This document shows, one piece after another, positions 270 through 53,024 of a DNA stretch of 64,000 nucleotides. This stretch comes from Escherichia coli (GTDB lineage Bacteria; Pseudomonadota; Gammaproteobacteria; Enterobacterales; Enterobacteriaceae), in NCBI RefSeq assembly GCF_003334355.1, contig NZ_QOWP01000021.1. One strand, given 5' to 3'. Under the pieces are notes generated by a model. The model saw nothing but the letters and a program-made list of their open reading frames with translations. It did not search any database and was not told the origin of the DNA. The first letter of the stretch is position 1; every line of letters begins with the position of its first letter. The translations under genes were made by a program, and so were the position numbers.

Positions 270-346
270 GCATCCGTAGCTCAGCTGGATAGAGTACTCG
301 GCTACGAACCGAGCGGTCGGAGGTTCGAATCCTCCCGGATGCACCA
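270..346 (+). tRNA. argQ: tRNA-Arg (anticodon ACG), complete 77 nt
   Basis: gcatccgtagctcagctggatagagt...ggatgcacca; cloverleaf with ACG anticodon in ggctACGaacc loop; recalled E. coli arg tRNA sequence. Confidence 0.9.
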
Positions 347-28274: not shown

Positions 28275-29366
<1,092 letters not shown>

Positions 29367-29587
29367 TTATTGTGATCAAAAGCAACAAATTAGTAACATT
29401 TAACGTAGGGTATTAAGGCAAAGTGAGACAGGAAATGAATAACTAAAGCAACAGGTTAGGGGGAGTTAACATTAGAGAACAGATTATCTGGTCGATAAAA
29501 AACAGTAAATGGCTTCACTGCAAAATGACCGTTAGTAAACTAAACATATTATCTGCCCCGTTTTATCGGGGCAGATATAACATTAAA

Positions 29588-31840
29588 TTATAAATAGAGA
29601 TAGTTCGGCGGTTCTCCTGTTTTCCCTAAAAGAAGAGCGCTACGCCCAGGAATATTGATATTTAGAGTTCCGCCTCTAAGCGTAAATACTTTACCAGGAG
29701 GGATAATTTTTCGGGTATTATTAATAATAATGTTAACGCTATTACTCCCCATGTTTTTGTATATTCCAGGTTGCAATTTGTTAGGCCAGGTACCTTCAAC
29801 TTCTTCGTTTCCTTTATTTATTATAACTAGTCCATCATGAGGAGAGTGATTAATGTTCACAGAATCCCCACGACTAAAGGCCAGAACGTTTTTAGTTGCA
29901 GATACACCCTCAAATGCGCTCCATATTCCTGCTTTATCTATATATAATGCGTGGAATTCATTGTAGAGCTGCTGATAGGTAGAGCAACCTTTATTAAGCT
30001 ACGCCTCACCGCCGACACGCGTGGACCCATCATAATTTTTAATTTCAGTCGTTGATTTTAATACTTGGCCATCCCAGTAAACTAAAGGCCTGCTGAACGG
30101 CAGAGCGGCTATATATGCCATTGCTAATTGTTCATCTTGTTGATGGTTAAATAGAAAGTCATTGAAAAGATTACCATTGTTAGGAAAATCGTGGTTAATG
30201 TTAATCAATATCCGTCTTTCTGATGGGATACTTGAGATTGTGGAACCCGGTTTTGATGCAAGGGTTTGAAGATCTCCACCAAATGAAAAGGCTTTTATCG
30301 TTTTCATGAGCAATGAAAAATCAATGGCGCTTAAATCATCTCTTTCATAAAGCAGTGATGACATTTGTTGTTCATCCAACTGACAAGTTACCAGATATTC
30401 CATGTAATTCATAACGGCTTTTTTATGATATTTTGGGTTAAATAAGTTAGTATTGTGTAACCGCTCATTATAATTTTTAAGCGGTGGGGTTATTGATCTT
30501 TCTATTTGTTCATGTTTTGAGTGTTTTGCCGCATCATAACGTAAACCTCGTACGCCATATTTTCGCATTTCACGAACGTATTGATTTTGCAACATAATAA
30601 CCTGGTCACTTTTGGGTGTTGTTTTAGGCATTCCATTTAAACGCTTTTCTTTTAATGCATGGAGGTTTTCCCATTCATCCTTAGAGATGTTATCTTTACT
30701 TGCTTCGAAGTCTTTTGCAGTGAGATGTATATCTTCTGGATGGATTTGTTTACGTTCTTTTGTTACTGGATCTTTAATGAATGGAATCAAAACCTGACCT
30801 TGCTAATAGCCAGGGATACCACCTTCTATATCTTTACTGATCTTCGCTCGTATATCAGCAAAGGGATAATCCAGGTCATTTTTACCACTACCCCCAATTC
30901 CCATAAAGTTAAAGGTATAATCAGGAATGATATCGATACCAAATTTTTTAGCATCTTTAACCAATGCAATAAAATCCTGCAAATCTCCCATTGGATTATG
31001 GATGGTACAAAGATCTTCGGATTGATAAGCATGAAACCAGTAACCCTTTTCTTCTTCGGGAGTTTCTGGTCCGTCGGCGCGGAAAGTTGTCACTGGAGGG
31101 ATTTGTATATACCCATAATGGCAACGTGCAAATTCAGACATATTTTCTCTGATCTGCTGGTAGGTGGCATTAAAAGCATGAAGAATCGCTTCGCCAGGTT
31201 TTTTGGGGGTGATGATTTCACATTGTGATTTCTGAACAGCAGTAAGAGATTTACGCTCAAGTGTTTGCCGTAGATGTTCTAGATTGATTAATATTTTAAA
31301 TGTTTCTTGCTGTCCGGAAGGTGACGTCACGTTAATATTATATACATCGGCTGCCAGCTCATAGTCAGGAATGTTAATAGCATATGCAACATATTTATCT
31401 TTTGGGGAAGGTTTGTCAGATATAATGTGGGTGAAATTTTCAGCACGACCATACTGATAAACACCGCTGTTATCACCTCTTTCAATCATTGTATCTCGTT
31501 GATAAACCTATGTTTTTCTTTCTCCTATCCTGTCTGGCGCTGTAATGCTACGCTGTGCTGCTTTATTCAACTCTCGGTAAGTTGTATCTGGAGAAAGGGA
31601 AATTTTATAATCGTTTTTTAACAGATCATTAATAACTTTTTCTGCGTGAAAAGTTGATATAATTTCTCTGTCTTTTAATCCTTGAGGGTAAACTCCACAA
31701 GAATTAATAATATTTGTTATACAGTTTAGATATTCTAATGTATTTAATTTGGAATTTAGATCCCCGTCAGTAATGTTCCATGATAACAATGTGGGGTTGT
31801 CGATAGGTAAATTTCTGGGTCCTGGTTTTATAGAAAACAT
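29588..31840 (-). pseudogene. ygaQ: ygaQ-like glycoside hydrolase (alpha-amylase-like) gene interrupted by three in-frame TAG codons (31508-31510, 30803-30805, 29999-30001), no frameshifts
   Basis: Four consecutive minus-strand ORFs share one reading frame; GH13-like GIDIIPDYTFNFMG segment. Confidence 0.7.
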
Positions 31841-32388
31841 AATAAAGTTCCTCTAATGGTAGAGTAATATGATGTATACGGAAACATAAAAATGTTTAAT
31901 TGTTGTGAAAGTAATTGCAAACAGATGTCCTACTTTTATCCAATATTTATATGGAAAAGGATAATGCTTAAATCTGTTTTATTAATTATCGATGTGGTCT
32001 GGAGAGGCAACTGTCAAAAATCGCTCATACGAAACTAATGATTAGCAGAATAAGATCTATGAAAGAATATATTGCTATACGAAGTTTATTTTTATGGAGT
32101 GAAAAGTAACAGATATCATAATGATGCGAAAACTCTTCAGCTAATGTAATAAAGTTATATTATTAGATACAAAGTATCATTGAATCGATGATAACTATAG
32201 ATAGTGCTAATTATTAACATTTGCTTGTTGACTGCGAGTATCGACTTTGCGAATGGAGGCGGTGTCGGGTTTTATGTCGCGTGTAATCACGACCCAAGGT
32301 GAATGGGAACGCATAAAAATCTGTTATTTACATCATATGATCATCATGTTTATTGCGTGGTTTATAAGTATTGTTATTGCACACTCAA

Positions 32389-32464
32389 GGCCCTTTAGCT
32401 CAGTGGTTAGAGCAGGCGACTCATAATCGCTTGGTCGCTGGTTCAAGTCCAGCAAGGGCCACCA
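32389..32464 (+). tRNA. ileY: tRNA-Ile2 (anticodon CAU, lysidine-modified type)
   Basis: ggccctttagctcagtggttagagcaggcgactCATaatcgc...gggccacca; recalled ileX/ileY sequence. Confidence 0.85.
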
Positions 32465-33213: not shown

Positions 33214-33696
33214 ATGTTAGTTAGTAAAAGCAACGGATTTAACGCTAGCGCAGTTTTGGGTAGTGGAAGTTATAATGAAAATAAATCTTCTAAACACATG
33301 GAGCTACTAGCTCATAGTATTTTAAAATTAATTTGTAAGGAAGCTGCATCAGAGACGTATCGCGGTGCTCTTGAAACTTTACAAAAAATGATGTCTGAAT
33401 GTATATATCAAGAAGGCAACGCCTTTGTCATTATGGGAGCTGGAGAACAATTAAAACGTATTAAATATGAAGTTGGTGAAAATAACTTAAAGGTATTCAA
33501 CGTACACTTTAATAATAATCACGAGTTAGTTAGTTCTGGTGAGCCTGACGTAATATGTTTAAGCAAGCAGGTCTGGGAAAATCTTCTCATTAAACTAAAG
33601 CTGGAAAACAATGAAAATGTGTTTTCTGAAACTAAAAAATTATCGAATAAAAATAATGCCGATCAGTTTTTTGAATGCGCTAAAAGAAATGAATAG
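33214..33696 (+). CDS. Hypothetical protein (AT-rich island gene)
   Basis: 160-aa ORF in AT-rich DNA next to tRNA-Ile; no recognisable motifs. Confidence 0.4.
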   Translation: MLVSKSNGFNASAVLGSGSYNENKSSKHMELLAHSILKLICKEAASETYRGALETLQKMMSECIYQEGNAFVIMGAGEQLKRIKYEVGENNLKVFNVHFNNNHELVSSGEPDVICLSKQVWENLLIKLKLENNENVFSETKKLSNKNNADQFFECAKRNE

Positions 33697-33795
33697 AACC
33701 TTTTCGATAATATAAGAAAAAGTGATTTTCATGTTGGTTTACTTAAGCCAAGTAGTACGCGTAGTGTTATTTTAGAAACGCCGCCAAATGTCTGT

Positions 33796-34587
33796 ATGGA
33801 ATCACGTAATTCATATGAAAACAAAATAGATGAGATTTCATCTTTGTCAGAGTCAAAGGAACACCCCATAGATATTCAAGAAAAAAAAGATGCGTTTGTG
33901 AATGAGTTCAAGGGGGTATTATTTGATAAAAATACAAGGTCTTCAGAGCTTCTGTTTAATTTTTATGAGTGTTGCTATAAGTTTTTACCAAGAGCTCAGC
34001 CTCAAGATAAAATCGATAGCTATAATTCAGCACTGCAAGCTTTTTCCATTTTTTGTTCATCTACGTTGACACATAATAATATAGGCTTTGATTTCAAATT
34101 ATTTCCTGAAGTCAAGCTGTCTGGAGAACATCTTGAAACGGTATTCAAATACAAAAATGGCGATGATGTCCGGGAGATAGCCAAAATTAACATTACTCTC
34201 CAAAAAGAAGAGGGTGGTTTATATAATTTACGTGGATTGGATTTTAAGGGGTGCTTCTTTTCTGGACAGAACTTCAGTAACTATGATATTCAATATGTGA
34301 ACTGGGGAACGTCATTGTTTGATGTTGATACTCCGTGTATTTTTAATGCGCCTGCTTACAACAAGAGTAATGAAAAATCATTAAAACCTGTGAGCGAAAA
34401 CGGTTTAAGTGGAGTATTGACTGATCGTAATAATAAAATAAAACTCATCACGGGCGTGGCACCATTCGATGATATTTTATTTATGGATGATGACTTTGAT
34501 GATAGTTCCTCTGAGGATGATCCCGTTGAGAATAGTCCTGTTGTGACTAGTCCCGTTGTATCAAGTTCTAAAAGCAGTTTTCAATGA
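33796..34587 (+). CDS. Hypothetical protein (AT-rich island gene, acidic Ser/Pro-rich C-terminus)
   Basis: 263-aa ORF in AT-rich DNA. Confidence 0.45.
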   Translation: MESRNSYENKIDEISSLSESKEHPIDIQEKKDAFVNEFKGVLFDKNTRSSELLFNFYECCYKFLPRAQPQDKIDSYNSALQAFSIFCSSTLTHNNIGFDFKLFPEVKLSGEHLETVFKYKNGDDVREIAKINITLQKEEGGLYNLRGLDFKGCFFSGQNFSNYDIQYVNWGTSLFDVDTPCIFNAPAYNKSNEKSLKPVSENGLSGVLTDRNNKIKLITGVAPFDDILFMDDDFDDSSSEDDPVENSPVVTSPVVSSSKSSFQ

Positions 34588-52661: not shown

Positions 52662-53024
52662 TGGTGGAGCTGGCGGGAGTTGAACCCGCGTCCGAAATTC
52701 CTACATCCTCGGTACTACATGCTTAGTCAGTCTTTACATTCGCTTGCCAGCTGCGGACGGACACGCCACTAACAAACTAGCCTGATTAAGTTTTAACGCT
52801 TCAACCCCAGGCAGGGCTTCCACGCGATCTCTTTTGGGTTTGACCTCTCTTGATCCCCGTCCTAAGAGCGGAGGCTAGGGAGAGAGGGCTCTAAGCAGGT
52901 TATTAAGCTGCTAAAGCGTAGTTTTCGTCGTTTGCGACTATTTTTTGCGGCTTTTTACGAGGCCAACCGCCCCTCGGCATGCACCTTGGGTTTCGCAAAT
53001 CCCGTCGAATCCAGAATCAGCCCC
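52662..53024 (-). ncRNA. ssrA: tmRNA (SsrA), 363 nt
   Basis: Reverse complement begins GGGGCTGATTCTGGATTCGACGGG and ends ...GGGTTCAACTCCCGCCAGCTCCACCA; tag ORF region present. Confidence 0.95.

Follow-up and report, generated by a model that had tools for sequence, protein, structure and literature searches.

Three Trp-to-amber transitions in ygaQ, a decayed Escherichia coli gene for a protein with a predicted GH13 fold

The ygaQ reading frame of Escherichia coli raises the question of why a long gene should be interrupted by amber codons only, and whether such a frame is an ordinary pseudogene or one that is still read. The window analyzed here is a 64,000-nucleotide stretch of contig NZ_QOWP01000021.1 (assembly GCF_003334355.1), in which positions 29588 to 31840 of the minus strand translate into 750 codons followed by a terminal TAA. 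The frame contains exactly three internal stops, every one of them TAG, at codons 111, 346, and 614. The initial annotation had described four minus-strand ORFs (31840-31508, 31489-30803, 30790-29999, and 29860-29588) in a single frame, broken only by TAG at 31508-31510, 30803-30805, and 29999-30001 and open from 29861 to 29998. The mechanical ORF list has exactly those coordinates, and translation of the minus strand bears out both the TAG-only interruption and the open segment. The identification of the region as ygaQ, a GH13-like gene of about 750 codons with three amber codons and no frameshift, was also right. By chance, about 52 stops would be expected in 750 codons of a random frame of the same composition (probability of three or fewer, ~5e-19); 39 and 86 stops are found in the two remaining frames of the strand. 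The 2,253-nt frame has the length of the intact orthologues and aligns with them without an indel, and the alignment reveals no additional frameshift or deletion in the window allele. The first translatable product covers 110 of the 750 amino acids, and the catalytic domain is split by the stops. The features of the frame are as follows.

29588..31840, minus strand: the ygaQ pseudogene as a whole, 750 codons and the terminal TAA, colinear with the intact orthologues of 750 aa; annotated in RefSeq K-12
31508..31510, minus strand: amber 1, codon 111, TGG (Trp) to TAG, probably the youngest of the three; among sampled alleles found only in K-12-like ones
30803..30805, minus strand: amber 2, codon 346, TGG (Trp) to TAG, between GH13 regions I and II
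29999..30001, minus strand: amber 3, codon 614, TGG (Trp) to TAG, probably the oldest and the first inactivating lesion; takes off the C-terminal beta domain
31511..31840, minus strand: codons 1 to 110, the sole part translatable from the native start, equal to the 110-aa "YgaQ" ORF of the ASKA library
31849..31854, minus strand: Shine-Dalgarno-like AGAGGA, 8 nt upstream of the ATG, read from the sequence

The most probable reading, to which we assign a probability of about 0.9, is that the region represents the ordinary decay of the known ygaQ pseudogene, whose ancestral gene was killed by three stepwise TGG-to-TAG transitions, with no readthrough. The pseudogene status of ygaQ is already known: K-12 and thousands of RefSeq genomes carry annotations of the gene with internal stops. 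The K-12 entry in RefSeq reads [quoted passage not shown] and merges the former ORFs ygaQ and ygaR with two further fragments. The strain represented by the window is not K-12, because the surrounding 24 kb reaches at best 98.7% identity to any complete RefSeq E. coli genome.

That the TAG codons are sequencing or assembly errors has a practically negligible probability. The same three TAGs are present in K-12 and in complete genomes sequenced independently, which number from hundreds to thousands, and two unrelated public assemblies contain the window allele without a single difference: GCA_002190165.1 matches the window sequence with 0 mismatches over 6,687 nt, and SRR3951466 with 0 mismatches over 4,622 nt. 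Exact 61-mer counts for each TAG, given below, and these two identical independent assemblies rule out an assembly error, and no evidence in favor of a sequencing or assembly error at the three codons was found.

The gene order at the locus is ileY, ygaQ, glaH, and ygaQ is AT rich (37% GC) within a low-GC stretch beside ileY. Its neighbors are the following.

32389..32464, plus strand: ileY tRNA gene, flanking, at the edge of the AT-rich island; anticodon CAT by ARAGORN, tRNA-Ile in RefSeq, not an amber suppressor
28275..29252, minus strand: glaH (csiD), intact downstream gene of normal GC content, from the ORF list and annotation
29550..29577, minus strand: intrinsic-terminator-like hairpin just after the TAA, with an 11-bp stem (7 GC pairs) and then a T-rich tail

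A scan of the region for promoters and terminators found fewer promoter-like sites than in shuffled sequence, and only the terminator after the gene was informative. ygaQ has been used as a case of a horizontally acquired gene that is silenced by H-NS and has spurious promoters inside it (PMC7229825), and H-NS is marked at the spacer between ileY and ygaQ (PMC3946193). The neighboring pseudogene ypjC is likewise interrupted by a TAG, which derives from CAG.

In 9 of the 23 sampled genomes, the locus between ileY and glaH carries an intact 750-aa allele, and every intact allele has TGG at codons 111, 346, and 614. The initial annotation had left the source codons to a comparison with orthologues, and this comparison gives TGG (Trp) for all three TAGs of the window, each of which is a G→A transition. 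The sampled alleles form a nested series: L013 is intact; W614* is the sole lesion in L008, L011, and L012; L010 and L021 carry W346* and W614*; and the window and K-12 carry all three. Exact 61-mers for the TAG of W614* occur in at least 2,383 of 5,426 complete genomes, those for W346* in at least 1,073, and those for W111* in at least 893, which puts W614* in no fewer than 44% of the complete E. coli genomes. About 4,250 ygaQ alleles are present among these complete genomes. The nested distribution indicates that W614* was probably acquired first, followed by W346* and then by W111*. A sewage metagenome contig (L028) with W111* and W614* but an intact W346 would break the series. No match above 99.0% to the L028 segment exists among complete genomes, and for this reason the haplotype is treated as a probable chimeric assembly or rare recombinant. 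Other decay lesions are common among sister alleles. An added TGA stop, R115*, is found in L002; 1-nt indels occur in L004/L016, L020, and L023; and IS903B, ISEc33, and IS1A insertions and partial deletions occur in further alleles. ET210 carries a further stop at codon 115 on top of W111*, which would leave the 110-aa product unaffected, and O157 has an independent Q413* (CAG to TAG) at a CCAGG Dcm site (GACCAGGTT; GAC CAG GTT).

Among intact ygaQ alleles, dN/dS is 0.08 to 0.22, so the intact form is a real gene, still under purifying selection in other lineages. The few changes on the window lineage (8 synonymous, 9 nonsynonymous, and 3 nonsense) give a dN/dS of 0.30 to 0.40, a value higher than that of the intact alleles and yet not clearly 1.

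The product of the ancestral gene is predicted to adopt a GH13 alpha-amylase fold with domains A, B, and C and a catalytic triad of Asp436, Glu481, and Asp551. An AlphaFold model of the intact protein, built on a 46-sequence alignment, has a pLDDT of 83.6 and a pTM of 0.86; an earlier 8-sequence alignment gave an unusable pLDDT of 48.8. In a Foldseek search against the PDB, the top 50 matches were GH13-type enzymes, nearly all alpha-amylases, with a best E value of 1e-22 and a target TM score of 0.75 to 0.77. D436, E481, and D551 (in the NHD motif) are invariant or nearly so across 46 homologues, and the conserved regions can be placed on the window as follows.

30905..30934, minus strand: GH13 conserved region I, DIIPDYTFNF, aa 303 to 312, with Asn311 conserved and Phe in place of the usual His
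30521..30556, minus strand: GH13 conserved region II, GVRGLRYDAAKH, aa 429 to 440, with the predicted nucleophile Asp436; G432, R434, D436, and A437 invariant in 46 sequences
30389..30409, minus strand: GH13 region III, NYMEYLV, with the predicted acid/base Glu481; E481 invariant
30188..30205, minus strand: GH13 region IV, ININHD, with His550-Asp551; H550 and D551 retained by 90% or more of the sequences

An N-terminal extension of about 215 aa precedes the predicted amylase domain, the catalytic domain starting near residue 215. Pfam matches are weak (PF00128, i-E value of 1.2e-3 and 18.7 bits; PF02806, 3.5e-5), and the alpha-amylase matches in NCBIfam score 16 to 21 bits, all below the cutoffs of 749 to 1,269. 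Close relatives are almost wholly confined to Escherichia, and a few relatives with 33 to 39% identity occur in metagenomes. A literature search found no biochemical data for intact YgaQ.

The remaining question is why all three stops are amber. The window lineage has 20 derived substitutions, of which 14 are G:C>A:T transitions; in the clade, such transitions make up 21 of 34. The stops would be amber because these transitions dominate the lineage and few routes other than TGG to TAG lead to a stop by transition. Among the 20 substitutions, 0.7 to 1.1 nonsense changes are expected, against 3 seen (P of at least three, 0.04 to 0.10); after the first hit, the probability of at least 2 nonsense changes among the other 19 is 0.16 to 0.29. 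The absence of an indel from the window allele has a probability of ~0.17. The view of the initial annotation that such a frame is unusual for a decaying pseudogene is therefore not upheld, as the stops were acquired stepwise, the nonsense count lies within expectation, and sister alleles carry other decay lesions. On the transition-based expectation, TAG, TAA, and TGA stops would arise at a ratio of about 21:20:15, TGG to TAG making up about 16% of events. The probability that three of three stops are TAG is 0.05 under a transition-only model and 0.01 to 0.04 under other models, and the all-amber pattern, recognized post hoc, is considered a mild oddity. Of the nine Trp codons in ygaQ, three were turned into stops, and the location of every stop at a Trp codon is regarded as a coincidence that is not fully explained.

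The amber-only pattern might instead be nonrandom, produced by a C>T hotspot in the CCA context (the opposite strand of TGG), by selection preferring tight UAG over leaky UGA, or by selection for progressively earlier truncation of a fragment that is misfolded and costly; together we consider these quite unlikely. All three stops are TGG to TAG (P = 0.004 given a transition to nonsense), and TAG is the stop in 4 of the 5 independent nonsense events of the ygaQ sample (P = 0.07), but every one of these tests was made post hoc and on tiny counts. Of the 21 C>T changes found across the pseudogene clade, 7 lie in the CCA context, against a background of 9.4% (P = 0.002). Leaving out the three stops makes this enrichment marginal (4 of 18; P = 0.08), and the C>T polymorphisms of ygaQ taken together do not show it (9 of 88). 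As a hotspot is suggested only by counting the stops themselves, it was rejected. Successive stops moved in the 5' direction, from codon 614 to 346 to 111; this order has a chance probability of 0.38, and selection for 5'-ward truncation was likewise rejected. Selection on the type of stop cannot act on a gene that is already null, and the amber codon of neighboring ypjC, which might be added to the pattern, came from CAG by another route. Deamination at Dcm sites was rejected for the TAGs of the window, as ACATGGGTT, TATTGGCAA, and GCGTGGCTT, in which they lie, are not CCWGG sites; it accounts only for Q413* of O157 and one change in L002.

The TAGs could also be decoded, by an amber-suppressor tRNA, by programmed readthrough, or as a nonstandard amino acid, with the full-length GH13 protein still being made. 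This reading would fit a frame that is broken by amber codons only, without a frameshift, and that retains intact catalytic motifs in the window allele. In addition, the nucleotide after the stop is C at two of the three TAGs, and a C after UAG is a weaker termination context. Readthrough is nevertheless highly improbable. The orthologues carry TGG at all three sites, so TAG is not conserved, and since they encode Trp at these codons, pyrrolysine or programmed recoding was rejected. The TAGs arose stepwise in recent sublineages, in which later disabling lesions include a TGA stop and 1-nt indels, and three low-efficiency readthrough events in series would give a negligible yield. The initial annotation had suggested a search for suppressor tRNA alleles; the 64-kb window contains no amber-suppressor tRNA, and none of its two tRNAs and one tmRNA has a CUA anticodon. 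Wild E. coli strains are not known to have amber suppressors or pyl genes.

In RF1-deficient laboratory strains, endogenous tRNAs reportedly insert Gln, Tyr, or Trp at UAG (PMC4434889), which would speak for readthrough. As a speculation to which we give very little probability, a frame with UAG stops only and intact catalytic motifs may be a suppressor-conditional cryptic gene, which would yield a full-length GH13-like protein with three substituted Trp positions in supE/supF hosts or RF1-deleted recoded strains, or the TGG-to-TAG pattern may reflect a CCA-context C>T process or stop-type selection in AT-rich islands. In amber-suppressing or RF1-deficient laboratory strains, ygaQ would be one of the loci from which a long cryptic protein might be expressed again.

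A further alternative concerns the stub upstream of W111*. Bolt et al. 2016 reported that the overexpressed 110-aa fragment confers mitomycin C resistance and has single-stranded DNA (ssDNA) nuclease activity (PMC4725251), so the locus may not be fully dead, the fragment being a functional small protein in DNA repair whose production is made possible or tolerated by W111*. In that study, IPTG induction of the 110-aa ORF raised mitomycin C survival of a ruvAB mutant 1,000-fold, a multisite mutant of the ORF lost this effect, and chromosomal deletion of ygaQ in a ruvAB background caused a modest extra sensitivity (PMC4725251). The ORF also retains its ATG and a good Shine-Dalgarno sequence, and residues 33 to 90 are predicted with confidence as a small helical unit. 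However, residues 1 to 28 and 92 to 110 are of low confidence or disordered in the predicted model, the phenotype rests mainly on overexpression, and the region is reported to be silenced by H-NS (PMC7229825, PMC3946193). W111* was the last of the three hits, in a gene already dead, and the additional codon-115 stop of ET210 is a sign of continued decay. The 110 residues fall within the N-terminal extension, outside the amylase catalytic domain, and the rationale of amylase-like acid catalysis offered for the fragment (PMC4725251) therefore does not apply. We regard a functional small protein as unlikely, although the ygaQ locus may retain some function.

The analysis documents the lesions, the codons that they replaced, and their nested distribution, together with the predicted fold of the intact protein. 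Under ordinary decay, the ancestral AT-rich ygaQ beside ileY would have encoded a 750-aa protein with a GH13 fold behind an extension of about 215 aa. W614* would have come first and truncated the enzyme before its C-terminal domain; W346* and then W111*, arising after the gene was already dead, were probably neutral. Translation from the native start would now end at codon 110, and the stops are presumably not read through in a suppressor-free cell, in which a full-length YgaQ of about 85 kDa would not be made. The overall result matters little, ygaQ being an annotated pseudogene already. It adds the Trp-to-amber origin of every stop, the probable order of acquisition, the frequency of the first lesion, and the divergent, GH13-fold nature of the intact form. 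It also places the published "110-aa YgaQ nuclease" as the N-terminal stub of a 750-aa protein, which weakens its mechanistic rationale.

Among known systems, the closest is the K-12 ygaQ pseudogene, which shares the locus, the length, and the TAG codons 111, 346, and 614 with the window allele (99.8% identity, 5 differences in 2,253 nt). Three C>T changes, at gene positions 820, 980, and 2142, are private to the window allele, and one further difference from K-12 is shared with strain PSJ-16. Intact Escherichia YgaQ (WP_000491414.1, WP_033871305.1, and WP_064482904.1) is likewise 750 aa long, colinear, and at the same genomic position, and it differs in having TGG at the three codons and in the signature of purifying selection; the E. 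albertii homologue is 60% identical. Compared with the alpha-amylases AHA of Pseudoalteromonas haloplanktis (1AQH/1B0I) and AmyE of Bacillus subtilis (1BAG/1UA7), YgaQ has a predicted (beta/alpha)8 barrel, a domain B, and a C-terminal beta domain in common (E values of 1e-22 to 1e-21), as well as the Asp/Glu/Asp triad of regions II, III, and IV. It is, however, only 16 to 18% identical to them, with Phe replacing the His of region I and with the additional N-terminal region of about 215 aa. Finally, the classical lacI work of Coulondre and Miller is said to have located amber hotspots at Dcm sites, with CAG to TAG in CCAGG via deamination of 5-methylcytosine. The stops of ygaQ are likewise amber codons produced by G:C>A:T transitions, and Q413* of O157 fits the lacI type exactly, whereas the TAGs of the window come from TGG rather than CAG and lie outside CCWGG.

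The minus-strand frame running from window 31840 to 29588 is ygaQ and translates as 750 codons followed by TAA. The four ORFs of the initial annotation are present at its coordinates in a mechanical ORF list, and they do form a single frame with exactly three internal stops, all of them TAG:

31508-31510, minus strand, codon 111 (W111*), TAG in the translated frame
30803-30805, minus strand, codon 346 (W346*), TAG in the translated frame
29999-30001, minus strand, codon 614 (W614*), TAG in the translated frame

A random frame of the same composition is expected to contain ~52 stops, and the remaining two frames of the minus strand contain 39 and 86, indicating that the ygaQ frame was recently coding. 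At window 30793-30814 (minus strand), the second amber codon lies in the loop of a terminator-like hairpin, CCTGGCTATTAGCAAGGTCAGG then TTTTGATT, which is probably fortuitous.

Of 23 ygaQ alleles chosen across the identity range, fetched, and aligned, nine are intact, protein annotated, and exactly 2,253 nt each. Codons 111, 346, and 614 are TGG in all nine, and each TAG is therefore a Trp-to-amber G>A transition. Against the intact genes, the window allele aligns without any indel, which bears out the claim that no frameshift interrupts the frame. Three C>T changes (gene strand) are private to the window allele with respect to the 5,426 complete RefSeq E. coli genomes, where the closest match has 3 mismatches:

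window 31021, minus strand, C>T at gene nt 820
window 30861, minus strand, C>T at gene nt 980
window 29699, minus strand, C>T at gene nt 2142

The same allele recurs with 0 mismatches in two independent public assemblies, GCA_002190165.1 and SRR3951466, over 6.7 kb and 4.6 kb. This recurrence excludes sequencing error, including the possibility that the TAG codons are assembly errors, and indicates that the source strain belongs to a natural lineage missing from the complete-genome set.

The sampled alleles form a nested series of lesions.

Lesions in sampled ygaQ alleles (L numbers, fetched loci of other strains or contigs)
L013: no lesion (intact)
L008, L011, L012: W614* alone
L004 (O104:H4), L016: W614* and a 1-nt insertion near nt 1641
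L010, L021: W346* and W614*
Window, K-12 (L001), PSJ-16 (L003): all three TAGs
ET210 (L002): all three TAGs and R115* (CGA>TGA)
L020, L023: all three TAGs and one 1-nt deletion each, which could be sequencing errors

This series fits an order in which W614* would be the oldest stop and W111* the youngest. Exact matches to 61-mers centered on each TAG agree with it, being found for W614*, W346*, and W111* in 2,383, 1,073, and 893 of the 5,426 genomes, respectively. A sewage metagenome contig (L028, ERZ22666108) does not fit the series found in isolate genomes, as it carries W111* and W614* while retaining W346; its ygaQ segment has no match above 99.0% among complete genomes, and it is probably a chimeric assembly, the alternative being a rare recombinant. 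Other lineages have decayed differently. The O157:H7 alleles (L005 and L017) carry an independent Q413*, CAG>TAG inside GACCAGGTT, which alters the inner C of a Dcm site (CCAGG), a classical amber hotspot through 5-methylcytosine deamination. The C>T change at ygaQ position 17 in ET210 likewise lies within CCAGG. Further strains have IS903B, ISEc33, or IS1A insertions or partial deletions in ygaQ. In an SRR4430015 contig (L029), ygaQ lacks its 5' part and is missing a further 81 nt in frame (gene nt ~1139-1219), leaving a 490-aa ORF that retains the C-terminal domain; this is a further independent mode of decay.

The initial annotation regarded three ambers without a frameshift as unusual for a decaying pseudogene. 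With the three Trp codons restored, every single-base change of ygaQ was enumerated, and ~5% of substitutions create a stop. G:C>A:T transitions, which offer 56 routes to a stop (21 TAG, 20 TAA, and 15 TGA), account for 14 of the 20 substitutions derived on the window lineage and for 21 of 34 across the pseudogene clade as a whole, the GC content of ygaQ being 37%. The expected number of nonsense changes in 20 substitutions is 0.7 to 1.1, and the probability of at least three is 0.04 to 0.10; given a first, inactivating hit, that of at least two in 19 is 0.16 to 0.29. The probability that all three are TAG is 0.01 to 0.05, depending on the model, and that all three are of any single stop type is 0.12. 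Scaled from 3 indels per 34 substitutions in the clade, the window lineage would be predicted to carry 1.8 indels, with a probability of 0.17 for none; sister alleles do bear indels. These values do not mark the pattern as unusual. Transition-biased mutation at Trp codons and chance in small numbers suffice to explain the all-amber outcome. The location of all three stops on the nine Trp codons of ygaQ (P = 0.004, post hoc) leaves an unexplained residue that is most likely coincidence. The CCA context is enriched among C>T changes in the clade (7/21 versus 9.4%); without the three stops it is 4/18 (P = 0.08), and no enrichment is found among all 88 C>T polymorphisms of ygaQ.

Intact YgaQ gives weak Pfam matches to Alpha-amylase (1.2e-3, residues 264 to 444) and Alpha-amylase_C (3.5e-5, residues 649 to 738), and a phmmer search of PDB sequences aligns it from ~residue 215 with Ruminococcus bromii Amy16 and Bacillus alpha-amylases. 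Its close relatives all belong to Escherichia (E. albertii at 60%), and an exhaustive representative search brought in full-length relatives at 33 to 39% along with numerous amylase-like proteins of ~450 aa. Across 46 aligned sequences, G432, R434, D436, A437, and E481 show no variation, and K439, H440, H550, and D551 are nearly invariant; by sequence, these residues are assigned to GH13 regions II, III, and IV. The AlphaFold model from this alignment (pLDDT 83.6, pTM 0.86; low confidence at residues 1 to 28 and 92 to 162) has GH13 alpha-amylases as its top PDB matches (E = 1e-22, target TM 0.75 to 0.77). The dN/dS ratio is 0.08 to 0.22 among intact alleles and 0.3 to 0.4, from small counts, on the window lineage. 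Motifs and model support the proposed GH13-like identity, and with dN/dS they indicate that the ancestor was a functional, divergent enzyme with a predicted GH13 fold and a ~215-aa N-terminal extension. W346* falls between GH13 regions I and II; domain C is lost with W614*.

Bolt et al. 2016 (PMC4725251) identified the 110-aa first ORF, recovered from the ASKA library, as a factor conferring mitomycin C resistance. They reported single-stranded DNA nuclease activity for it and argued from an analogy to amylase acid catalysis. This "YgaQ nuclease" (window 31511-31840, minus strand) represents an N-terminal stub of full-length YgaQ (750 aa) and lies wholly inside the extension, since the GH13 domains start near residue 215; the analogy therefore lacks a structural basis. 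Only residues ~33 to 90 of the stub are confidently folded in the model. The reported phenotype stands, and the fragment is retained as a low-probability rival to simple decay.

Programmed recoding was rejected, because the stops are recent, lineage specific, not conserved, and followed by further lesions, the opposite of what recoding predicts. No suppressor tRNA is present among the RNA genes of the 64-kb window (tRNA-Arg, ileY, and tmRNA). Wild E. coli is not known to carry an amber suppressor; UAG is read through at a low basal rate, and the yield after three such events in series would be negligible. Engineered strains deficient in RF1 reportedly decode UAG as Gln, Tyr, or Trp (PMC4434889). 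The full-length product could in principle be resurrected there or in supE/supF hosts, as a laboratory curiosity rather than a natural mechanism.

The frame is flanked by glaH/csiD-lhgO-gabD and a tRNA gene (32389-32464; anticodon CAT by ARAGORN, tRNA-Ile in RefSeq, i.e., ileY). GC is ~0.58 in the gab operon versus 0.34 to 0.38 over ygaQ and past the tRNA gene, which places ygaQ within an AT-rich island. Among horizontally acquired genes silenced by H-NS, ygaQ has served as an example of one containing spurious intragenic promoters (Warman et al. 2020, PMC7229825), and H-NS is marked at the ileY/ygaQ spacer (Shimada et al. 2014, PMC3946193). Elsewhere in the window are a tRNA-Arg(ACG) gene (270-346, plus strand) and the tmRNA gene ssrA (52662-53024, minus strand; tag ANDENYALAA), the usual attachment site of a CP4-57-type island, which occupies the space as far as ileY. 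Across ileY, the AT-rich pseudogene ypjC (ypjCB/DUF5507; 33214-34587, plus strand) has a single in-frame TAG at 33694-33696, replacing CAG (strain M6) or CAA (O157, where ypjC is an intact 449-aa gene); this is another G:C>A:T transition by a different route to TAG.

By megablast, the 2.7-kb ygaQ stretch is matched in 4,249 of 5,426 complete E. coli genomes, with K-12 strains at 99.8% identity. The best complete genome over window 20000-44000, which includes the ypjA autotransporter, a primase-helicase-like gene, and the gab operon, is only 98.7% identical, unlike ygaQ and ypjC, which are 99.8 to 100% identical to K-12. This contrast next to ileY points to a mosaic or recombinant island. The finding is real, and ygaQ is a pseudogene in ordinary stepwise decay whose status was already known: in K-12 it already carries a pseudogene annotation, [quoted passage not shown] The window gene shows five differences from K-12 ygaQ, and the window is E. 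coli but not K-12 itself.
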